Shown here: piece by piece, positions 4,920 through 55,492 of the stretch | How the letters are laid out: each line of letters opens with the position of its first letter | How positions within the stretch are numbered: the stretch's first letter is position 1 | Sequence record: OP168898.1 | Strand: one strand, 5' to 3' | Length of the DNA: 64,000 bases | Source of the DNA: Escherichia phage ZCEC14 | The notes under the pieces: generated by a model | Told to the model about the DNA's origin: nothing | Seen by the model: the letters and a program-made list of their open reading frames with translations, nothing else | Databases searched by the model: none | Translations under genes and position numbers: made by a program

Positions 4920-5381
4920 ATGACTATCAACACAGAAGTTTTTATCCGTCGAAATAAGCTCCGTCGTCACTTTGAGTCGGAGTTTCGTCAAATTAACAAT
5001 GAGATTCGTGAGGCATCAAAAGCAGCAGGAGTCTCATCGTTTCATCTAAAATATTCTCAGCATCTTCTTGACCGCGCAATTCAACGGGAGATTGATGAGA
5101 CATACGTTTTTGAATTATTCCATAAAATAAAAGACCATGTTTTAGAAGTTAATGAATTCCTAAGTATGCCTCCGCGTCCTGACATTGACGAGGATTTTAT
5201 TGATGGGGTTGAATATCGTCCTGGACGTTTAGAAATCACAGATGGAAATCTTTGGCTTGGATTTACAGTTTGTAAACCTAACGAGAAGTTCAAAGACCCG
5301 TCACTTCAATGTAGGATGGCAATTATCAACAGTCGTCGTTTACCAGGAAAGGCTTCTAAAGCAGTAATTAAAACTCAATGA
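4920..5381 (+). CDS. regB: RegB site-specific endoribonuclease
   Basis: 153 aa; MTINTEVFIRRNKLRRHFESEFRQINNEIREASK... matches T4 RegB. Confidence 0.9.
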   Translation: MTINTEVFIRRNKLRRHFESEFRQINNEIREASKAAGVSSFHLKYSQHLLDRAIQREIDETYVFELFHKIKDHVLEVNEFLSMPPRPDIDEDFIDGVEYRPGRLEITDGNLWLGFTVCKPNEKFKDPSLQCRMAIINSRRLPGKASKAVIKTQ

Positions 5382-5388
5382 GGTAAGC

Positions 5389-5934
5389 ATGAGAAAAGCA
5401 CTACTCGCTGGTCTATTGGCCATTTCAATGATGGCACATAGCTCCGAGCATACTTTCAGTAATGTCCAACTCGATAACATGCGTTACGCGTATCAATTCG
5501 GGGAACAATTTTCTAAGGATGGAAAATATAAAACACATAAAAATATCCACAAGAGCGGATTAGGTCATATAATGGCTGCTATTTTATGGCAAGAAAGCTC
5601 TGGCGGAGTTAATTTAAAATCTAAACCAAAGCATCACGCCTACGGAATGTTCCAAAATTATTTGCCTACTATGCGAGCAAGAGTTAAGGAACTTGGTTAT
5701 AATATGACCGATGCTGAAATAAAAAGAATGTTGAATAAACGATCCAATTCAGCTTCCTGGGCGTACATTGAACTTTCTTATTGGTTAAATATACATAAGG
5801 GCGATATAAGAAAAGCAATATCCTCTTATAATTCGGGATGGAATGTTAAAGCAGGTTCTAAATATGCTTCTGAAGTCCTAGAAAAGGCTAATTACCTTAA
5901 AAATAATAAACTTTTGGAAATAGTAAATGACTAA
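5389..5934 (+). CDS. secreted lytic-transglycosylase-like protein
   Basis: 181 aa; N-terminal signal peptide; QESSGG...GMFQ resembles SLT catalytic motif. Confidence 0.5.
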   Translation: MRKALLAGLLAISMMAHSSEHTFSNVQLDNMRYAYQFGEQFSKDGKYKTHKNIHKSGLGHIMAAILWQESSGGVNLKSKPKHHAYGMFQNYLPTMRARVKELGYNMTDAEIKRMLNKRSNSASWAYIELSYWLNIHKGDIRKAISSYNSGWNVKAGSKYASEVLEKANYLKNNKLLEIVND

Positions 5935-9898: not shown

Positions 9899-10061
9899 AA
9901 AGCAGATGTTTTTAATGAAGCTAATTGAAGAATATGCTAATGCAGTTTCTGACTATGAGTGTTCTTCTAGGGAAAGAGGCATAGCTTTTGCAAAGGAAGA
10001 AATGAAAATCATGGTTGATGCTCACACAAAACTCCAGAATTTTATTGAAAACGTCATTTAA
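9888..10061 (+). CDS. hypothetical small protein (not in ORF track)
   Basis: 57 aa; ATG 9888 overlaps upstream ORF end. Confidence 0.35.
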   Translation: MKTEKQMFLMKLIEEYANAVSDYECSSRERGIAFAKEEMKIMVDAHTKLQNFIENVI

Positions 10062-10063
10062 TG

Positions 10064-10106
10064 GTTTACAAGTTGGCAAGGTTATGGTATAGTAATCTTG
10101 CCAACT
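10064..10106 (+). promoter_or_regulatory. early promoter embedded in a perfect 10-bp hairpin (PeSL-like element)
   Basis: GTTTAC 10064-10069, -10 TATAGT 10088-10093; arms AGTTGGCAAG 10071-10080 / CTTGCCAACT 10097-10106. Confidence 0.6.
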
Positions 10107-10225
10107 GCCAAGGAGAAGAGAATGAAAGTTTTGTTTGTTGTGTATGTGATGATTCAATATAATTACCCAATGTTTACTTATAATCTGGTGAACAACATTA
10201 TTGATATTATTCAAAGGAGCATGTA

Positions 10226-10411
10226 ATGACAAGTGAGCAGGCTTTTAAATTAAGAGAATTAATTGAGATGTATAGTAAAGCTGTTCATGCATCAACAGTT
10301 ATTGATGAATCAGCTTTCTCCGGACATGCTAATAAGATTAAATACAAAACTCTTATGGAAGAAGCTAAAGTAAATCTTGATTCTTATATTGAAACTTTAA
10401 TTGGTGAATAA
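10226..10411 (+). CDS. hypothetical small early protein
   Basis: 61 aa; SD AAAGGAG. Confidence 0.5.
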   Translation: MTSEQAFKLRELIEMYSKAVHASTVIDESAFSGHANKIKYKTLMEEAKVNLDSYIETLIGE

Positions 10412-10412
10412 C

Positions 10413-10679
10413 ATGAGCTTTCCTAAATTAGAAGTAGGCGATTTAGTCTTAACAAAATTGTGGAATGATGCTCAATCAGTAGAAATCTGTCAATATCGTG
10501 GAGCAACAGGTAATTTGATGTACACGATTTATAACCCAGAAATTTTGTTAGAGTGTCATTTGGAACGCTTTATAAAAGACACCGATAGTATGCCTTATAG
10601 TGTATCGATTGTACGTAAATCTGATACAAAGGAATACTCTAAAATTTTAGAACAAATTCATGCCAATAAAAAGGATTAA
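10413..10679 (+). CDS. hypothetical protein
   Basis: 88 aa from ATG 10413. Confidence 0.45.
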   Translation: MSFPKLEVGDLVLTKLWNDAQSVEICQYRGATGNLMYTIYNPEILLECHLERFIKDTDSMPYSVSIVRKSDTKEYSKILEQIHANKKD

Positions 10680-10680
10680 T

Positions 10681-11211
10681 ATGAAACGATTAGTACTAGA
10701 AGTTAGTTCACTTTTTGGTGAATTGGCTATAGAAAAAGTAAATAATATGTATCGTTTGACGCAAGAAGACGATATGCTATATTTTACGCCTAGCGAAATT
10801 ATTCATTTAACCCAAATTGAAAAACCATACACTGATAAAATTGTAAGCATTAATGATGAGCATAAAATTCATTTTTATTCTTTATGCCCAGGATTTAATA
10901 TTGAAAGCGAGTCAATATGCTTATCAATTAATAATTGGGATAATTTTATAGCTAAGATTAAATATTTCTATTATTCTAATGAAAGAAAACATGGTTTAAA
11001 ATGGTTTAAAAATTGCAATGCTATTATTACTAACGCTTGTAATCAAAATTATGAAACTGTTTTAAATGTATCAAAATGCTATGAAGAGGGAGATGTCTTA
11101 ACTATTCGTCAATCGGTAAATGATGTTAATGTTGTTGTATTAAACAAAGAAGAAGCTGTTTTATTAAAGACTTATCTTGATTCTGTCATTCCAACTATGA
11201 TTTCAAAGTGA
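10681..11211 (+). CDS. hypothetical protein, paralog of next ORF
   Basis: 176 aa from ATG 10681; C-terminus similar to 11218-11739. Confidence 0.5.
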   Translation: MKRLVLEVSSLFGELAIEKVNNMYRLTQEDDMLYFTPSEIIHLTQIEKPYTDKIVSINDEHKIHFYSLCPGFNIESESICLSINNWDNFIAKIKYFYYSNERKHGLKWFKNCNAIITNACNQNYETVLNVSKCYEEGDVLTIRQSVNDVNVVVLNKEEAVLLKTYLDSVIPTMISK

Positions 11212-11217
11212 GGAAAT

Positions 11218-11739
11218 ATGTTTATTTCAAGTGAAAGTGGTTTAATTCGTGTTGAATTTAAAAATGACATCTTCCTTATTCAAGGAGATGATAATATTAA
11301 AATGAGTTATGACGAAATTAAGAAAATTTGTCATGCTCTTGAAAGTCATGGAAAAGTAAATGCTACTATCGATATAGGCGATTTATGGGTGACACTTTAT
11401 GAAGTATCCGAAGGATTTAACATTGAAGATGAAAACAACATCTTAGCTATTGATAAAAGAAGTGATTTGTTTGATGTGTTAAAAGTTTATGAACAGTCAA
11501 ACGGTGGAAGAAAAGCCGTATTAATTTATCAAAAACCGCATTCATGTGGAACTGCTTCAATCATTTCAAATATTGAAGATGAAACTGATACTTATATGTG
11601 TGTTTTGAAAGCTGGCCGTGACCGTCATCCGGATTTTATTTCTATTCGTCAAAACAATGAAGAAATTTCATTATCAAAATCAGAAGCTGAAGCTATGATT
11701 AAGTATTTAACAACTGTTACACCTTCAATGAAAGGATAA
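11218..11739 (+). CDS. hypothetical protein, paralog of previous ORF
   Basis: 173 aa; shared C-terminal K.EA..L..YL..V.P.M motif. Confidence 0.5.
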   Translation: MFISSESGLIRVEFKNDIFLIQGDDNIKMSYDEIKKICHALESHGKVNATIDIGDLWVTLYEVSEGFNIEDENNILAIDKRSDLFDVLKVYEQSNGGRKAVLIYQKPHSCGTASIISNIEDETDTYMCVLKAGRDRHPDFISIRQNNEEISLSKSEAEAMIKYLTTVTPSMKG

Positions 11740-11741
11740 TT

Positions 11742-12203
11742 ATGATTATTAATGAAAGCTCTTGGCACTATAAATTATTCAAAATGTTTAATGATGAATG
11801 GAAACGGCCTAAGACACTATGCGCGTATTTTTGGTCTATTGTTATTCCTACATTTTTCGTTTCTTTTTTCGGATGTACTATACTCGCAGGTCTAACTATC
11901 ATCTGTGCAGAAATCATACAGAAATGGTTTATTTTTGGTAGTTTATGGACTCTTATTCCATCAGCATTTGTACTTGCCATTTTGCTTGTTTTACTTATTA
12001 TTGGTTCATTTGTTATTCCTGCACAACTGCATGAAAAATATAAAGATTATAAATGGAAAAAGGATTATGCTTTACATGTAGAAAATATTGATAGGGCGTA
12101 TAAAGGTTTACCTCCTATTCAACCCAAGAAATCTATTATCGTCGAATTTTTAAAAGCTCGTAAAGCTAAAGTATGTCCTGTTATTGAATATAAGGCTGAA
12201 TGA
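11742..12203 (+). CDS. hypothetical membrane protein
   Basis: 153 aa; two or three hydrophobic helices. Confidence 0.5.
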   Translation: MIINESSWHYKLFKMFNDEWKRPKTLCAYFWSIVIPTFFVSFFGCTILAGLTIICAEIIQKWFIFGSLWTLIPSAFVLAILLVLLIIGSFVIPAQLHEKYKDYKWKKDYALHVENIDRAYKGLPPIQPKKSIIVEFLKARKAKVCPVIEYKAE

Positions 12204-13213
12204 TGAAAACAGTAATGAAAAGCTATTTTGGTAGTCATCTTTATGGAACTTCTACTCCAGAATCTGATGTAGATTTTAAAGAAATCTTTGTTCCTCCTGC
12301 TCGCGATATTCTTATCGGAAATGTTAAAGAGCATATGAGTAAAAACACTAACAACACATCATCTAAAAACACTAAAGATGATATTGACCATGAACTATAC
12401 AGTCTTAAGTATTTCTTTAAATTAGCAGCAGACGGTGAAACTGTAGCATTGGATATGCTTCACACTCCGCCTGAACTAGTAGTTAAATCTGATTTGCCTG
12501 ATGTATGGAAATTTATCCAAGACAATCGTTCACGGTTTTATACAACTAACATGAAAGCCTATTTAGGATATGTGCGCAAGCAAGCTTCTAAATATGGTGT
12601 TAAGGGTTCTCGTTTGGCTGCATTGCGTAATGTATTGAAAGTAGTTAATCAAATCCCCGATCAGTGGGTTGATTACCGAGAAGATGGAACACAAGGACAA
12701 CGTCGTACTAAAATTGTAGATATTAAACATCGGCTTCCTGAAAACGAGTTCTGTGAATGGGTATTCCATAACCACGAGAAAACAGGTCCTCAAACGTTCT
12801 ATACTGTTCTTGGACGTAAGTACCAAACCACCTTGTCTTTAATCGAGCTCAAGCAATCTCTGAATAAGCTCGATGCGGAATATGGTGAACGTGCTCGTAA
12901 GGCTGAAGCTAATGAAGGTATTGACTGGAAAGCTCTGAGTCATGCTTATCGCGCAGGGTATCAATTGATGGAAATCTACCAAACAGGTGATTTGGTGTTC
13001 CCATTGCGCGAAGCCTCTATCATTAAGCTGATTAAAGCCGGTGAATTACCATTTAAAGAAGTTCAAGAACTTCTTGAAGATACTGTTGATTTGGTTGAAG
13101 TCCTAGCCATCCAGGCAGCTAAGAACGGTATGCCTGATAAGGTAGACATGAAGTTCTGGGACAAGTTCGTTGAAGAGGTATATCTTGAAAACCACCGAAG
13201 TTATTATAAATGA
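12200..13213 (+). CDS. putative Pol-beta-superfamily nucleotidyltransferase
   Basis: 337 aa; N-terminal GSHLYGTSTPESDVDF fits G[SG]-x9-DxD motif, later VALDML acidic residue. Confidence 0.5.
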   Translation: MMKTVMKSYFGSHLYGTSTPESDVDFKEIFVPPARDILIGNVKEHMSKNTNNTSSKNTKDDIDHELYSLKYFFKLAADGETVALDMLHTPPELVVKSDLPDVWKFIQDNRSRFYTTNMKAYLGYVRKQASKYGVKGSRLAALRNVLKVVNQIPDQWVDYREDGTQGQRRTKIVDIKHRLPENEFCEWVFHNHEKTGPQTFYTVLGRKYQTTLSLIELKQSLNKLDAEYGERARKAEANEGIDWKALSHAYRAGYQLMEIYQTGDLVFPLREASIIKLIKAGELPFKEVQELLEDTVDLVEVLAIQAAKNGMPDKVDMKFWDKFVEEVYLENHRSYYK

Positions 13214-13214
13214 T

Positions 13215-13240
13215 AGGGAGCCTTCGGTCTCCCTTTTTGT
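13215..13240 (+). terminator. intrinsic terminator, TTCG loop
   Basis: AGGGAGCC-TTCG-GTCTCCCT followed by TTTTT. Confidence 0.65.
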
Positions 13241-13261
13241 TTAAAATGACGTCACAAAGTT

Positions 13262-13291
13262 GTTTACAAGCATAAAGCTTTATGGTACTAT
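13262..13291 (+). promoter_or_regulatory. T4-type early promoter with shared leader repeat
   Basis: GTTTAC 13262-13267, -10 TACTAT 13286-13291, leader TACAACTATCAACT. Confidence 0.65.
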
Positions 13292-13326
13292 ACAACTATC
13301 AACTGATGTGGATTTGGGGGAATAAA

Positions 13327-13476
13327 ATGAAAACTACGTTAATTGAAGTAAAAAAGTTGATTGACACAGAAGAGATTTCAGCTTGTTTTGAAAATTTCTT
13401 AGAAGATGCAACTGAAGATAACGCAGTTTATCTCGCTCAGAAAATTATAGAAACATATTTGGAGCAGAATCAATGA
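13327..13476 (+). CDS. hypothetical small protein
   Basis: 49 aa from ATG 13327 (SD GGGGG); track ORF started inside the promoter. Confidence 0.4.
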   Translation: MKTTLIEVKKLIDTEEISACFENFLEDATEDNAVYLAQKIIETYLEQNQ

Positions 13477-13736
13477 CAGTTTACGTAGATGTTTTAATGA
13501 ATCATGGATGGAAACTTCGCGGTCATCCAACTAAAAATTGTCATATGTTCACTGATGGAGATATTGAAGAGCTTCATGAAATGGCAGAAGCAATAGGAAT
13601 GAAACGCTCTTGGTTTCAAGATAAACGCATTAAACATTATGACTTACACGCGCGCCGCCGCCAAAAAGCCGTAGAACTTGGAGCTGTAGAAGTATCTCGT
13701 CGCGAAGCAGTAAAAATTTGGCGAACATTAAAATAA
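13473..13736 (+). CDS. conserved hypothetical protein (MTVYVD...EELH...WFQ...HYDL pattern)
   Basis: 87 aa; locally GC-rich segment; no function assigned. Confidence 0.5.
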   Translation: MTVYVDVLMNHGWKLRGHPTKNCHMFTDGDIEELHEMAEAIGMKRSWFQDKRIKHYDLHARRRQKAVELGAVEVSRREAVKIWRTLK

Positions 13737-13739
13737 ATT

Positions 13740-13769
13740 GTTTACAGTAGGGTAGTAGTGTGATACTAT
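13740..13769 (+). promoter_or_regulatory. T4-type early promoter
   Basis: GTTTAC 13740-13745, -10 TACTAT 13764-13769. Confidence 0.6.
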
Positions 13770-13805
13770 TACCCTATCAAAACAAATGTGAAATTGGAGA
13801 ATAAA

Positions 13806-14774
13806 ATGAAAACTGTAACTATCAATAAGGGTATCTACTTCGGTAAAGAAATCTCTGGAACTTTTGAGCTCTTAGGCGAATGGTTCCCAGATAATGCTCC
13901 GGTAGATGCACAAGGAGATGGTAAAGTTTTTGTTGAAATTGACGGTAAACGTCGCGGTGTTTGGGTTTACAAATCAGATATTTCATATGATGGTGTAAAA
14001 GTTGAAGAAGTTAAAGAATCATATGAAGATATGAAAACCCGCATTAATAAAAGATTTAATGTTATGGGAATGATGACGAATGGTATTATTAATGGAAATA
14101 TTCGTTCATTGATTATCTCTGGCGCAGCAGGTATTGGTAAAACGTATTCTTTAGATAAAGCTTTAAATAAAGCAAATGATAATGGATACATTGAATATAA
14201 AAGCATTAACGGTAAAATCTCTGGTATTGGTCTTTATGAACAGCTTTGGAATAATCGTGAAGAGAATTCTGTCCTTTTGATTGATGATGTGGATGTTTTC
14301 TCTGATATGGACATTCTTAATCTTCTAAAAGCTGCTCTGGACACTGGAGAGACCCGTAAAGTCTGCTGGAGCACTGCATCTTCTTACTTAGAAGAAAAAG
14401 GCATTGACCGTGAGTTTGAATTTAAAGGAACGATTGTTTTTATCACAAACGTTGACATTGACCGCGAATTAGACCGTGGTACTAAACTTGCTCCACATTT
14501 ACAAGCATTAGTGTCCCGCTCAGTTTATTTAGATTTGGGTGTTCACACTAATGAAGAAATTATGGTCAGGGTTGAAGATGTTATTCTTTCAACTGACATG
14601 ATGCAAAAGCGCGGTCTTTCTGATGAAGAAACTTATAAAGCATTATCATGGATGAAAGTTAATGTTAATCGTTTACGCAATGTTTCACTGCGTACTGCTC
14701 TTTATCTTGCTGACTTTATTATGACCGACAAAAACGGTTGGGAAGAAATTGCTGAGGTTACTCTTCTGAAATAA
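13806..14774 (+). CDS. AAA+/P-loop ATPase
   Basis: 322 aa from ATG 13806; Walker A GAAGIGKT, Walker B LLIDDVD. Confidence 0.6.
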   Translation: MKTVTINKGIYFGKEISGTFELLGEWFPDNAPVDAQGDGKVFVEIDGKRRGVWVYKSDISYDGVKVEEVKESYEDMKTRINKRFNVMGMMTNGIINGNIRSLIISGAAGIGKTYSLDKALNKANDNGYIEYKSINGKISGIGLYEQLWNNREENSVLLIDDVDVFSDMDILNLLKAALDTGETRKVCWSTASSYLEEKGIDREFEFKGTIVFITNVDIDRELDRGTKLAPHLQALVSRSVYLDLGVHTNEEIMVRVEDVILSTDMMQKRGLSDEETYKALSWMKVNVNRLRNVSLRTALYLADFIMTDKNGWEEIAEVTLLK

Positions 14775-14875
14775 TTCATAAGAGGACTTCTATGACAAAA
14801 AGGCAGTTCAGAAATAGATTATATGGACTGCCATTAAAAAGATGACTAGAATTAAACTGGTGAATGGAGGTAGTG

Positions 14876-15178
14876 ATGTTATACTCAAAGGCTCGTGAAA
14901 TTTACGAAACTAAAATTAAAGAAGCAGTATTTCAGTTCGCAACGACAATGCGATGGACAAATGACTGGGAGTATTCAAAAAATCATAAGAAGCCCATGGT
15001 GACAAGAAAGGCTCATATGTTGGTGTTAATAGACCGTGAGCAGATTAAAGCCCGAGAAGCCCTCCAGAATCATAAAAAGGCTGCCTTTGAATGGTTTATG
15101 GATAACACTGCTCCTGAGACTAAGAAAGCAGTAAGCGCATGGTTCAGTGGAAAAAATTGTGAAAGAAGTTTCTTTTAG
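14876..15178 (+). CDS. hypothetical protein
   Basis: 100 aa from ATG 14876 with SD GGAGG. Confidence 0.45.
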   Translation: MLYSKAREIYETKIKEAVFQFATTMRWTNDWEYSKNHKKPMVTRKAHMLVLIDREQIKAREALQNHKKAAFEWFMDNTAPETKKAVSAWFSGKNCERSFF

Positions 15179-15180
15179 TG

Positions 15181-15235
15181 GTTTACAAGACTGTTCCTCT
15201 GTGGTACTATACAACTATCAACTACGGAGGAACAG
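15181..15235 (+). promoter_or_regulatory. early promoter plus leader hairpin (PeSL-like); 9-bp arms include the SD
   Basis: GTTTAC 15181-15186, -10 TACTAT 15205-15210; CTGTTCCTC 15191-15199 pairs with GAGGAACAG 15227-15235. Confidence 0.6.
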
Positions 15236-15238
15236 AAA

Positions 15239-15766
15239 ATGAACGCTAAAGATATTTTCAACTTGGTAAATTACAACGATGGCAAATTTAAATCTGAAGC
15301 GCAAAGCAAGTTCTTTAACGACATCTCAATCGGAGGTGAAATCACTGTTGATGGAGGACAAATTTACAAATCCCGTTGGAATTGGATCGTTATTATTGAT
15401 GAGATCGGTATTGTAGAAATTTACAAGAATACGAATAAAAATCGTACATTACACTGGTCTCGTGATACTAACGAACAGTACAAAAAGGATAAAGCATCTA
15501 AAATGTCTCGTGTAACTCAAGAAGATATTGAGTTCATCAAGAAAGATATTTTAATGTATGATAACTTAATTGCTGAAGAGCAAGCTGTTATTGATAAATT
15601 TGACGAGATTAAAGCTTCTCGTGAAATTCCTGATTTTATGAAAGAATCAGTAAATGAACGATACTCTCTCATTTCAGAGCGTATTGAAACTTACAAAAAG
15701 CAAAGAGCTGAACGCCAAAATACTCTTCGGAAGTTTGAAGAACGGTTAAAGACGGTACTCGCATAA
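15239..15766 (+). CDS. hypothetical protein
   Basis: 175 aa. Confidence 0.5.
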   Translation: MNAKDIFNLVNYNDGKFKSEAQSKFFNDISIGGEITVDGGQIYKSRWNWIVIIDEIGIVEIYKNTNKNRTLHWSRDTNEQYKKDKASKMSRVTQEDIEFIKKDILMYDNLIAEEQAVIDKFDEIKASREIPDFMKESVNERYSLISERIETYKKQRAERQNTLRKFEERLKTVLA

Positions 15767-15821
15767 CCGCTTTATACCAAGGATGGTATAATGGTTCTAA
15801 GCCCTTTTAATTGAGATTATT

Positions 15822-16229
15822 ATGAAACGGTTGATAATTAAAAGATTGAATTTATTGATATGTTGTTTATGTATAGTAGTTGCATATGGTTATTACGCAA
15901 TTAATGATTATATGCATTATAAAGATTATGATGTTACTGTAGTTAATACTATTACAGGAACTCAAGGAAAAGGGTCTAGTTTATCGTTTATTGCCGTATA
16001 TGAACTCAAAGACGGTTATAGATTTAGTGAATATATTTCCCCAGAGATGTATTCTTCAATAGAAAAAGGTGATAATATTACTGTAAGTTTACGTCCTTTC
16101 GACGTAAAACAGACACTGTTTGATAATATTGTTTGGTTCTTTGGGATGGTATTAGTTCAATCCGTGTGTGGCGCTTATGTAGTTTGTTCAATCATATTCT
16201 GTGTATTTAGTAAAATTGAAATTGAGTGA
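15822..16229 (+). CDS. hypothetical membrane protein
   Basis: 135 aa; N- and C-terminal hydrophobic helices. Confidence 0.5.
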   Translation: MKRLIIKRLNLLICCLCIVVAYGYYAINDYMHYKDYDVTVVNTITGTQGKGSSLSFIAVYELKDGYRFSEYISPEMYSSIEKGDNITVSLRPFDVKQTLFDNIVWFFGMVLVQSVCGAYVVCSIIFCVFSKIEIE

Positions 16230-16236
16230 GGAAAAT

Positions 16237-17127
16237 ATGTCAGTAGTAATTAATAATGTCAATGCAGTAATTAAATCTTTAGTTAATAAAAAAATGATGA
16301 ATGAATGGACTGTACTTCGTCGTGGAGAGCCAGATAAATTTTTTCATAGATTTAACCCAACTTTGGATTTGAATGTTATTGATAAAGATGTTCATGCCGA
16401 AATTTTAGATAAGTTTAAAGTTGATATTGGATTTGGATTAGAAAAACATTTACAGCGAACAAATGGATCTGGAATGAGTTTATCTAATCGCATTATGAAA
16501 GCCCTTAATAAAATTGGAGCATTGTCTCGTATTAACGCGAGTGAAATCCTTCGTAATTATAATAAAGGATACGACCTTTATGGTCGACTAATGCCGAAAT
16601 TATCATTTGACCAAATGATCGCAGATTTGTGGGAAAATCAACGACGATTATTAGCATTAGGCGCTCGATTAGCTAAAGGTCTAGATAAACAAATGATTTT
16701 TAAGACCAATAATACAGAAGACCTTAAATGCTTTAAATTTAGTACTCGTGGAGATGATTATTACGTCAGAGCTCACTCTACAGATTATGTTAATATGGGG
16801 CATCATCTCTGTTTAGCTTTTGAAGTTTTAAAAGAAGCTGGAACATTAGAATATTCATCTGGTGCTAAATGTCCGATTGGTTCAAATTGCATTTTAATTT
16901 ATCGCCCAGATGAATCCAGTTCATCTAAATTACCTACAAAACCTGTACCAGTTCGTAGTAACGAAAAACATTCTGAACAAATTGCTTATTTTAATAAGCA
17001 GATTGAAGAGCTAAATATTTCTATTCAGCAATATGATGATGAAATTTTCAGACTATCTGGATTGAGTAGTAAAGCTAAATCTGAGCGTGAAAAGTTAATT
17101 AAAATTGTCGATTTACTTAAATCTTAA
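16237..17127 (+). CDS. paralog family member 1 (coiled-coil C-terminus)
   Basis: 296 aa from ATG 16237; first of four tandem related ORFs. Confidence 0.5.
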   Translation: MSVVINNVNAVIKSLVNKKMMNEWTVLRRGEPDKFFHRFNPTLDLNVIDKDVHAEILDKFKVDIGFGLEKHLQRTNGSGMSLSNRIMKALNKIGALSRINASEILRNYNKGYDLYGRLMPKLSFDQMIADLWENQRRLLALGARLAKGLDKQMIFKTNNTEDLKCFKFSTRGDDYYVRAHSTDYVNMGHHLCLAFEVLKEAGTLEYSSGAKCPIGSNCILIYRPDESSSSKLPTKPVPVRSNEKHSEQIAYFNKQIEELNISIQQYDDEIFRLSGLSSKAKSEREKLIKIVDLLKS

Positions 17128-54176: not shown

Positions 54177-55492
54177 CATTTGATGATTTGACAGAAGGCC
54201 AGAAAAATGCCTTTAACATTGTTATGAAGGCTATTAAAGAAAAGAAACATCATGTAACTATTAATGGACCTGCTGGTACTGGTAAGACTACTCTTACCAA
54301 GTTCATTATTGAAGCCCTAATATCTACAGGTGAAACTGGTATTATTTTAGCAGCTCCTACACATGCAGCTAAAAAGATTCTTTCAAAACTGTCAGGGAAA
54401 GAAGCGAGTACTATTCACAGTATTCTCAAAATTAACCCGGTAACATATGAAGAAAATGTTCTTTTTGAACAAAAAGAAGTACCAGATTTAGCTAAATGCA
54501 GGGTATTAATCTGTGATGAAGTGTCAATGTATGATAGAAAGCTATTTAAAATTCTGCTTTCAACTATCCCGCCGTGGTGTACTATAATTGGAATAGGGGA
54601 TAATAAGCAAATTAGACCTGTTGATCCAGGAGAAAATACTGCTTATATCAGTCCATTCTTTACGCATAAAGATTTTTATCAGTGCGAACTCACTGAAGTT
54701 AAACGCAGTAATGCTCCTATTATTGATGTAGCTACTGATGTTCGTAACGGTAAGTGGATTTATGATAAAATTGTTGACGGGCATGGAGTACGTGGATTTA
54801 CAGGTGATACCGCTTTACGCGATTTTATGGTAAATTATTTTTCAATCGTAAAATCACTAGATGATTTGTTTGAAAATCGCGTAATGGCATTTACGAATAA
54901 ATCTGTTGATAAGTTAAATAGCATTATTCGCAAAAAGATTTTTGAAACTGATAAAGATTTTATCGTTGGTGAAATTATCGTAATGCAGGAACCATTAATT
55001 AAAACATACAAAATTGATGGAAAGCCTGTGTCAGAAATTATTTTTAATAACGGACAATTAGTTCGTATTATAGAAGCAGAGTATACATCAACGTTTGTTA
55101 AAGCTCGTGGTGTTCCCGGAGAATATCTAATTCGTCATTGGGATTTAACAGTAGAAACTTACGGCGATGATGAATATTATCGTGAAAAGATTAAAATAAT
55201 TTCGTCTGATGAAGAGCTATATAAGTTTAACCTATTTTTAGGTAAAACGGCAGAAACGTATAAAAATTGGAACAAAGGCGGAAAAGCTCCGTGGAGTGAT
55301 TTTTGGGATGCTAAATCACAGTTTAGTAAAGTGAAAGCACTTCCTGCATCAACATTCCATAAAGCTCAGGGCATGTCTGTAGATCGTGCTTTCATCTATA
55401 CACCTTGTATTCATTATGCAGATGCTGAATTGGCTCAACAGCTTCTTTATGTTGGTGTTACCCGTGGTCGTTATGATGTATTTTATGTATGA
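54173..55492 (+). CDS. dda: Dda DNA helicase (SF1)
   Basis: 439 aa; Walker A GPAGTGKTT, DEVSM; matches T4 Dda. Confidence 0.93.
   Translation: MTFDDLTEGQKNAFNIVMKAIKEKKHHVTINGPAGTGKTTLTKFIIEALISTGETGIILAAPTHAAKKILSKLSGKEASTIHSILKINPVTYEENVLFEQKEVPDLAKCRVLICDEVSMYDRKLFKILLSTIPPWCTIIGIGDNKQIRPVDPGENTAYISPFFTHKDFYQCELTEVKRSNAPIIDVATDVRNGKWIYDKIVDGHGVRGFTGDTALRDFMVNYFSIVKSLDDLFENRVMAFTNKSVDKLNSIIRKKIFETDKDFIVGEIIVMQEPLIKTYKIDGKPVSEIIFNNGQLVRIIEAEYTSTFVKARGVPGEYLIRHWDLTVETYGDDEYYREKIKIISSDEELYKFNLFLGKTAETYKNWNKGGKAPWSDFWDAKSQFSKVKALPASTFHKAQGMSVDRAFIYTPCIHYADAELAQQLLYVGVTRGRYDVFYV

Follow-up and report, generated by a model that had tools for sequence, protein, structure and literature searches.

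Escherichia phage ZCEC14 (sequence record OP168898.1) was analysed over a stretch of 64,000 nucleotides, referred to below as the window, and attention was given to a part of its early region in which an orthologue of the T4 gene nrdC.11, a small two-gene cassette, and an orthologue of the T4 gene nrdC.10 follow each other. The genes and regulatory elements that matter most for the interpretation of this locus are the following:

12200 to 13213, plus strand: nrdC.11 orthologue, encoding a Pol-beta nucleotidyltransferase (NTase) of the RlaP family (PF10127), 337 amino acids (aa).
13215 to 13234, plus strand: hairpin followed by a T-run, resembling an intrinsic terminator, directly after the nrdC.11 stop codon (-12.1 kcal/mol, z -2.4) and conserved in the T4 spacer.
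13263 to 13291, plus strand: early-promoter-like element, copy 1 (TTTACA-N17-TACTAT, with TG before), upstream of the 49-aa open reading frame (ORF) and the DUF4031 gene.
13327 to 13476, plus strand: conserved ORF for an acidic protein of 49 aa (isoelectric point, pI, 4.1; phrog_6888, E 5e-29), annotated in phage P8.
13336 to 13793, no strand assigned: segment of 458 bp without a T4 counterpart; the nrdC.11-nrdC.10 gap in T4 is only 114 bp.
13473 to 13736, plus strand: gene for a basic DUF4031 (PF13223) protein of 87 aa (pI 9.7; 77.7 bits against a cut-off of 25.6; phrog_4887).
13741 to 13769, plus strand: early-promoter-like element, copy 2, identical to copy 1, upstream of nrdC.10.
13806 to 14774, plus strand: nrdC.10 orthologue, encoding an AAA+ ATPase of 322 aa (phrog_1250, E 5e-167), or of 328 aa if translation begins with the GTG at 13788.

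An earlier, preliminary description of this DNA had placed here three ORFs (12200-13213, 13473-13736, and 13806-14774) with the motifs GSHLYGTSTPESDVDF, VALDML, GAAGIGKT, and LLIDDVD in their products, as well as a terminator after the first ORF and fresh promoters behind it, and had asked whether the genes equal the nrdC.x genes of T4. All three ORFs are present on the plus strand, the motifs are found in the translations, and the terminator and promoters correspond to the hairpin at 13215-13234 with its T-run and to the promoter-like elements at 13263-13291 and 13741-13769; the conserved 49-aa ORF at 13327-13476 had been overlooked. Two of the genes are indeed nrdC.x genes, namely, the orthologues of nrdC.11 and nrdC.10, and the 87-aa DUF4031 gene is absent from T4.

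Comparison with the T4 reference record indicates that the order nrdC.11, nrdC.10, nrdC.9, nrdC.8 is retained, with NrdC.9 and NrdC.8 encoded by the two ORFs that follow nrdC.10. The locus is, as described earlier, part of a T4-like hyperplastic early region. The two larger genes are direct orthologues of those of T4 and share with them the order, the orientation, and the terminator-promoter spacer, but differ in that the nrdC.11 allele of the window is 87% identical to that of T4 in protein (83% in DNA) and the nrdC.10 product 98.7% identical, and in the 458-bp cassette that lies between them. Escherichia phages EcNP1, Nami, and P8 share 99.3-99.6% nucleotide identity with the window, and a nucleotide search with the segment matched 761 phage records, mostly of the Tequatrovirus genus. 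The matches of the region's proteins to PHROG families (E 1e-44 to 1e-167), together with Pfam matches to RlaP (E 2.5e-13) and DUF4031 (E 8e-22), show that these ORFs are not products of chance. The Rfam scan of positions 10000-17000 returned zero RNA families, and no tRNA genes were found in the window. The reading that we favour, with somewhat better than even confidence, is that the region is an ordinary part of the Tequatrovirus nrdC-mobD hyperplastic early region and consists of three independent units: nrdC.11, the 49-aa ORF with the DUF4031 gene, and nrdC.10.

The similarity of the 337-aa product of the first of these genes to T4 NrdC.11 (NP_049709), which is annotated as a nucleotidyltransferase, extends over 336 aa, and the start codon may in fact be the second ATG, at 12203, giving a protein of 336 aa as in most annotated orthologues. 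The Pfam RlaP model PF10127 matched residues 7-136 with a score of 50.7 bits against a gathering cut-off of 23, and the assignment to phrog_388 ('nucleotidyltransferase') had an E value of 3e-132. Homologues of NrdC.11 make up 3,544 representative clusters at 50% identity (E <=0.001), the best-scoring of which align over nearly the full length, and PF10127 is carried by every homologue among the matches listed. Residues G11, G16, S22, D23, D25, N57, D61, and D63 are invariant in the alignment of 30 members of the family (34-52% identity), and S12 and D85 are conserved in at least 90% of them, so that all elements of the Pol-beta signature (hG[GS], DxD, and the third carboxylate) are retained and N57...D61-x-D63 represents an invariant motif of the family. 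NrdC.11 is thus a member of the RlaP family with an intact active site, and the preliminary description of the protein as a Pol-beta-type NTase is correct. That description had named two observations that would speak against catalysis, a placement in a non-catalytic family and a loss of the active-site acidic residues on alignment. Neither was seen: RlaP is a catalytic family, and the conservation of the acidic residues in it is complete or almost complete.

The AlphaFold2 model of NrdC.11, of mean predicted local distance difference test score 92.2, begins with an NTase core that takes up about residues 1-115; a variable beta subdomain follows at about 155-209, and residues 214-336 form a C-terminal bundle of helices, the last of which is long (317-336). 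The acidic residue of VALDML, D85, had been pointed out as a further acidic residue beside the signature. In the model it is placed on a helix (81-87), whereas D63 is placed on a beta-strand (62-68). In NTases, such a strand position is the usual place of the third catalytic carboxylate. Judging by secondary-structure position only, this role would therefore belong to D63 rather than to D85.

The suggestion that the enzyme is a minimal or cGAS/DncV-like NTase, which makes or mimics a nucleotide second messenger and belongs, like the small protein and the ATPase, to a module for host takeover or against CBASS/Thoeris, is very improbable in the light of these results. The solved folds closest to the model are those of template-independent terminal NTases or ANT-type (aminoglycoside) NTases, and the model does not have a fold of the cGAS/OAS/DncV type. 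A search for CD-NTase and CBASS cyclase models gave no Pfam match to NrdC.11 and only one PADLOC model, PDC-S09, with E values of 0.003-0.03 over 17 residues; the cGAS/DncV-like suggestion is therefore not supported, and the family is that of RlaP. The PADLOC scan of NrdC.11, the 49-aa ORF product, DUF4031, and NrdC.10 assigned none of them to a defence-system family. In sequence searches of the PDB, performed for NrdC.11, DUF4031, and NrdC.10 both with single sequences and with family profiles, nothing significant was found. HalB (PDB 9dbh), the NTase that synthesises oligodeoxyadenylate in the Hailong defence system, shares with NrdC.11 the NTase core only, has 217 residues, and shows no detected relationship to it at the sequence level; the possibility that NrdC.11 would make HalB-like oligonucleotides to hold off a Hailong-type effector is even less likely than the bolder interpretation of the 49-aa ORF and DUF4031 that is given below.

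Functional data on the RlaP family come from a preprint by Carruthers, Fatma and Huang of December 2025 (doi 10.64898/2025.12.29.696909) on two Pseudomonas enzymes, PfRlaP and PaRlaP, that are encoded in rtcB operons. These enzymes add one or two nucleoside monophosphates (or deoxynucleoside monophosphates) to the RNA 3'-OH, are most active with Mn2+ or Co2+, and favour as a substrate the 5' half that a cleaved tRNA mimic provides, whereas DNA and protein are not their substrates. According to the same preprint, a repaired tRNA that had lost one anticodon-loop nucleotide is aminoacylated more efficiently with RlaP, and the authors propose RlaP to be an antidote to 'smart' ribotoxins, such as RloC, that cut and then trim tRNA. 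The same role was predicted earlier by Iyer et al. (2021): these authors noted that, in jumbo phages, RlaP is distributed in a way that mirrors RNA ligases, and they expected it to put back the nucleotides that RloC takes away (PMC7824862).

By analogy with these enzymes, NrdC.11 would extend RNA 3' ends in a template-independent manner. Its likely substrate would be a tRNA 5' half, left when a host anticodon nuclease such as RloC cuts the anticodon loop and then trims it; the end-healing and sealing enzymes of the phage (T4 Pnkp and Rnl1) could afterwards rejoin a full-length tRNA. T4 is the phage in which RNA repair was discovered, and its pseT and rnlA genes are located elsewhere in the genome. 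The type of end that RlaP yields, a 3'-OH, is the one that the Pnkp/Rnl1 pathway requires (doi 10.64898/2025.12.29.696909). An RNA 3'-end extension that most plausibly supports tRNA repair by Pnkp and Rnl1 is the best-supported mechanism for NrdC.11, although both the RNA substrate and the repair role are assigned here by homology. The idea that RlaP may complete the Pnkp/Rnl1 pathway is already implied by the RlaP papers and was not discovered here.

The likeness of NrdC.11 to PfRlaP and PaRlaP consists in the match to PF10127 above the threshold, in the GS...DxD motif with a third Asp, and in the predicted combination of an N-terminal NTase domain with a C-terminal helical domain; moreover, T4 NrdC.11 is itself listed in the preprint. 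PfRlaP is described there as a two-domain protein in which an NTase domain at the N terminus and a helical one at the C terminus form a cleft, with the last helix packed back on the NTase domain (doi 10.64898/2025.12.29.696909), and the model of NrdC.11, with an NTase core and a helical C-terminal part, agrees with the two-domain layout, the comparison being with the published description only. Several points weigh against the reading of NrdC.11 as an RNA repair enzyme. The preprint, which counts T4 NrdC.11 among the PF10127 proteins, gives it the label 'unknown function' and places it in cluster 5 of its sequence similarity network, whereas the assayed enzymes belong to cluster 1a. The Pfam match is limited to residues 7-136, leaving the C-terminal half without a model match; of the 249 positions of the Pfam model, only positions 23-143 are matched in the 337-aa protein, which also has the extra variable beta subdomain at about 155-209. 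Finally, neither an RNA ligase gene nor a kinase-phosphatase gene adjoins nrdC.11, so that the gene association from which RlaP takes its name is not seen locally; the neighbours are genes encoding a membrane protein, mobD.1-like genes, the DUF4031 gene, and nrdC.10.

A different target has also to be considered. NrdC.11 might nucleotidylylate a protein or a small molecule, for instance by AMPylating a host factor or a host toxin, in the manner of aminoglycoside and lincosamide NTases, GlnE, DrrA, or MntA-type antitoxins. We regard this as unlikely, since the family match is to RlaP and the two RlaPs assayed modify RNA and not protein or DNA, and since the match to MntA does not extend beyond the GS...DxD motif (18 residues) and is far under the cut-off. 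As to the biological significance of nrdC.11, viable genome-reduced mutants of T4 have lost large fragments, the nrdC.11-mobD.3 block among them (PMC9825161), which means that nrdC.11 is dispensable in the laboratory. This dispensability fits an accessory or counter-defence role, and the anti-defence function proposed in the preliminary description may be regarded as plausible for the NTase.

The 322-aa protein encoded further downstream is the counterpart of T4 NrdC.10 (NP_049708). It consists of an N-terminal beta-rich domain of about 75 aa, a Walker A motif (GAAGIGKT), a Walker B motif (LLIDDVD), and a helical C-terminal domain. In 22 aligned sequences the Walker A residues (G106-x4-G111-K112-T113) and the Walker B residues (D160-D161) are invariant; its description as a P-loop/AAA+ ATPase holds. 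The candidate sensor-1 residue, N215, lies in an invariant VFITN motif, and R238, in ALVSRS, is invariant too. The protein is strongly conserved, with 55-79% identity across the Escherichia, Serratia, Yersinia, Acinetobacter, Aeromonas, and Vibrio phages sampled and 43-46% in some Vibrio phages, and its gene occurs in 1,311 phage records, those of the jumbo Asteriusvirus included.

None of the curated AAA+ profiles matched NrdC.10 above its threshold: AAA_16, AAA_22, AAA_14, nSTAND3, Hda, and Cdc6 were all sub-threshold. The weak matches included AAA_16 and AAA_22 in 20 of the 22 members each, Hda in 9 of the 22, and Cdc6 with E 0.17. With the DnaA/Hda/Cdc6-Orc1 group, as well as with AAA_16 and AAA_22, NrdC.10 has in common Walker A, Walker B, the candidate sensor-1 residue, and the helical lid; it differs from this group in that its matches remain below the thresholds and in its unique N-terminal beta-rich domain. 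These features weakly suggest that, among AAA+ ATPases, NrdC.10 is nearest to the DnaA/Hda/Cdc6 group, and it is probably an ATP-dependent switch or loader that acts on a nucleic acid or a partner protein. We know of no origin-binding or loader role for NrdC.10, and a further reservation is that its mechanism is read from conserved residues and weak sub-threshold matches. A relationship to the clamp loader as its paralogue was considered as well and rejected, because the NrdC.10 profile finds no other ORF in the window and the weak matches are to Hda/Cdc6 and AAA_16/AAA_22.

Homologues of NrdC.10 with 37-41% identity were also observed in jumbo phages of about 350 kb, namely, Escherichia phage Sharanji of Asteriusvirus (retrieved locus 5001-5780) and Yersinia phage fHe-Yen9-04. 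These homologues are devoid of the N-terminal 65-75 residues or so, which indicates that the AAA+ core circulates beyond Straboviridae without the beta-rich N-domain.

The neighbourhood of an NTase and an ATPase had been taken as a sign of a three-gene module. A separate possibility is that NrdC.11 and NrdC.10 cooperate, the AAA+ protein delivering or remodelling RNA (or ribonucleoprotein) for the NTase, with the DUF4031 cassette as an incidental insertion between them. The order of nrdC.11 followed by nrdC.10, with only small ORFs in between, is kept across Tevenvirinae and in an Acinetobacter phage of Twarogvirinae, and both genes are widespread in Straboviridae (1517 records for nrdC.11 and 1311 for nrdC.10). 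This lasting proximity counts against the independence of the units that we propose; however, it is what general T4-type synteny predicts, and it leaves cooperation only a small chance. In the window, the terminator and the separate promoters divide the two genes. In Vibrio phage D486 nrdC.10 lies between nrdAB and the topoisomerase II gene, and in Aeromonas phage UP87 between motA and asiA, in both cases with no nrdC.11 within 6 kb, and the jumbo phages of Asteriusvirus have only the truncated homologue of nrdC.10, nrdC.11 being absent within 5 kb of it. The numbers of records per host genus are also discordant (286 for nrdC.11 vs. 149 for nrdC.10 in Klebsiella phages, and 59 vs. 121 in Vibrio phages), and bacterial RlaPs function without such an ATPase. 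Cooperation of the two proteins seems to us, accordingly, a rather remote prospect.

The terminator with its separate promoters, the optional and mobile cassette, absent from T4 and located elsewhere in phages of other genera, the occurrence of nrdC.10 with no nrdC.11 nearby, and the discordant counts leave the idea of a three-gene module without support: the adjacency of nrdC.11, the DUF4031 cassette, and nrdC.10 mirrors T4-type synteny and not a functional module. The genes themselves are already known. They bear T4 names; nrdC.11 was assigned as a COG3541 nucleotidyltransferase gene and nrdC.10 as a gene encoding an AAA ATPase by Nolan et al. in 2006 (PMC1524935); RlaP was recognized as a phage RNA-repair family in 2021, and the membership of NrdC.11 in it was recorded in 2025. 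The main value of our analysis is, therefore, in the correction that neither a cGAS-like signalling role of the NTase nor an operon-like module of the three genes merits pursuit. What is left is an RlaP with a putative repair role, NrdC.11, in the phage where RNA repair was found, and two conserved proteins of no assigned role, DUF4031 (with its acidic partner) and NrdC.10.

In the cassette, the stop codon of the 49-aa ORF overlaps the start codon of the DUF4031 gene in the sequence ATGA, and, by this overlap, the two genes are predicted to be translationally coupled. The 49-aa ORF accompanies the DUF4031 gene in Straboviridae. The same pair, with the small ORF directly upstream, is present in Citrobacter phage Moon and in a Klebsiella phage of Jiaodavirus, about 1.6 kb downstream of nrdC.10, and this different location indicates that the 49-aa ORF and the DUF4031 gene move as a unit, independently of their neighbours. 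The 87-aa gene had been described as locally GC-rich. This is only mildly true with regard to the window (39.4% vs. 34.5%), and its GC content is the same as that of nrdC.9 and lower than that of the 3' half of nrdC.11 (41.3%).

DUF4031 is common to Straboviridae, unrelated phages, and many Actinomycetota. It was found in 336 phage records, which represent T4-like phages of Klebsiella, Escherichia, and Enterobacter as well as unrelated phages of Burkholderia, Pseudomonas, and Labrenzia, and in the genomes of 395 bacterial species; among the 80 bacterial loci listed, nearly all are of Actinomycetota. Residues Y4, D6, H24, L34, A38, G42, Q49, H55, Y56, D57, and G70 are invariant in 25 diverse members. 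The protein is predicted to form a compact alpha/beta domain, and the location of invariant Asp and His residues on its consecutive predicted beta-strands leads us to infer a small metal-dependent or His-based hydrolase. DUF4031 may thus be a small protein with a catalytic or metal site, and its acidic 49-aa partner may regulate it. As in the case of NrdC.10, it speaks for caution that the mechanism is deduced from conserved residues. A Foldseek search of DUF4031 against BFVD gave no match at E <0.01, and no convincing neighbour was found among solved structures. A bolder interpretation, in which the pair would be a previously unrecognised mobile two-gene unit, DUF4031 a His/Asp-dependent hydrolase of very small size and new fold that acts on nucleic acid or nucleotides when phage and host are in conflict, and the acidic partner its regulator or inhibitor, is a long shot.

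The genomic neighbourhoods of DUF4031 in bacteria were inspected at the 80 loci, with a GC3-filtered caller used to predict ORFs at those of high GC content. No NTase, ATPase, or RNA-repair partner was seen at any of them. A downstream protein of about 496 aa, thiolase-like by sequence inspection, and apparently metabolic genes recur only in Acidimicrobiales, and these neighbours were rejected as functional partners, as they reflect the synteny of this lineage. The neighbours of DUF4031 in unrelated phages and prophages are genes of replication, nucleases, and methylases. A DUF5131 (Gp37/Gp68) gene lies two to four genes upstream of it in a Mycobacterium prophage-like region and in Labrenzia phage vB_LagS-V1; in the latter phage DUF4031 directly precedes two DNA methyltransferase genes, and in Burkholderia phage Mica it comes after genes of the VRR-NUC and ParB-like types. 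These neighbourhoods may hint at a DNA-related role of DUF4031, but they are too few for an interpretation.

The manner in which the cassette is inserted follows the pattern of the promoter-early stem-loop (PeSL) cassettes, through which insertions and deletions arise in T4-type hyperplastic regions (Arbiol et al. 2010; Comeau et al. 2014; PMC2839356, PMC4122927). The spacer unit of T4, composed of a terminator hairpin, GTTTACA...TGGTACTAT, and GGAGAATAAAATGAAAACT, is single in T4, whereas the spacer alignment shows it to be doubled in the window, before the 49-aa ORF and before nrdC.10; promoter copy 1 corresponds in this alignment to the T4 promoter ahead of nrdC.10. Both junctions of the cassette align to one T4 segment, 55312-55332, and about 20 bp of T4 sequence (the ribosome-binding site, RBS, and ATGAAAACT) is found at each edge. 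The cassette would have been gained or lost by recombination between the duplicated early-promoter/RBS sequences, according to the PeSL mechanism.

At the upstream boundary of the insertion, the hairpin at 13215-13234, which is the stem-loop half of a PeSL-type element, is accompanied by the promoter at 13263-13291, and at the downstream boundary, the second promoter and another hairpin occupy 13741-13778. As in PeSL cassettes, a stem-loop and an early promoter are located at the boundary of an insertion or deletion, and a duplicated promoter/RBS flanks genes that are variably present in relatives. Two differences from those cassettes are that the repeat in the window runs through the RBS and the first three codons (ATGAAAACT) and that its second promoter copy lies inside a much stronger hairpin. 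The latter, with a 14-bp stem at about 13747-13778, directly after the DUF4031 stop codon, has a folding energy of -20.2 kcal/mol (z -4.6), and none of 200 shuffled sequences folded as well. It overlaps (segment 13738-13785) the spacer and the -10 region of the promoter-like element of nrdC.10 and is not followed by a T-run. Its function could be to stabilise the 3' end of a transcript, to provide a processing site, or to occlude the promoter.

A sharp mosaic boundary was observed at the terminator/promoter spacer, separating positions 12199-13335 from 13794-15124. On its upstream side, alleles of nrdC.11 with at least 95% identity were found in only 7 phage records, and on its downstream side, from nrdC.10 on, the identity to T4 is 96.6% and 502 records reach at least 95%. 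The pattern of sequence similarity suggests that an allele exchange at the PeSL element stands behind this boundary.

Outside the cassette, a third copy of the early-promoter-like element, identical to copies 1 and 2, was identified upstream of nrdC.8:

15182 to 15210: early-promoter-like element, copy 3.

The sequence around it is 76% identical to the T4 spacer ahead of nrdC.10, which makes this site a further potential point of PeSL recombination.

In many phage records the orthologues of nrdC.11, nrdC.10, and nrdC.9 are labelled 'thioredoxin', and once 'putative HNH homing endonuclease'. None of the products of these three genes contains a thioredoxin domain, so that 'thioredoxin' is a propagated misannotation, which probably spread from the gene-name prefix nrdC.

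Directly upstream of nrdC.11, the window differs from T4 in gene content as well, a membrane-protein gene and a second paralogue of the mobD.1-like type standing where T4 has its mobD homing endonuclease gene:

11742 to 12203, plus strand: gene for a predicted membrane protein of 153 aa (phrog_944, E 1e-49), in place of T4 mobD.

Two segments of this part of the window are without a T4 counterpart and together fill the position of the mobD HNH homing endonuclease gene. One of them, 10238-10682, contains a 92-aa ORF (10401-10679), and the other, 11237-12198, contains the second y05I/mobD.1-like paralogue (11218-11739; PF24449 and PF24448) and the gene of the 153-aa membrane protein.

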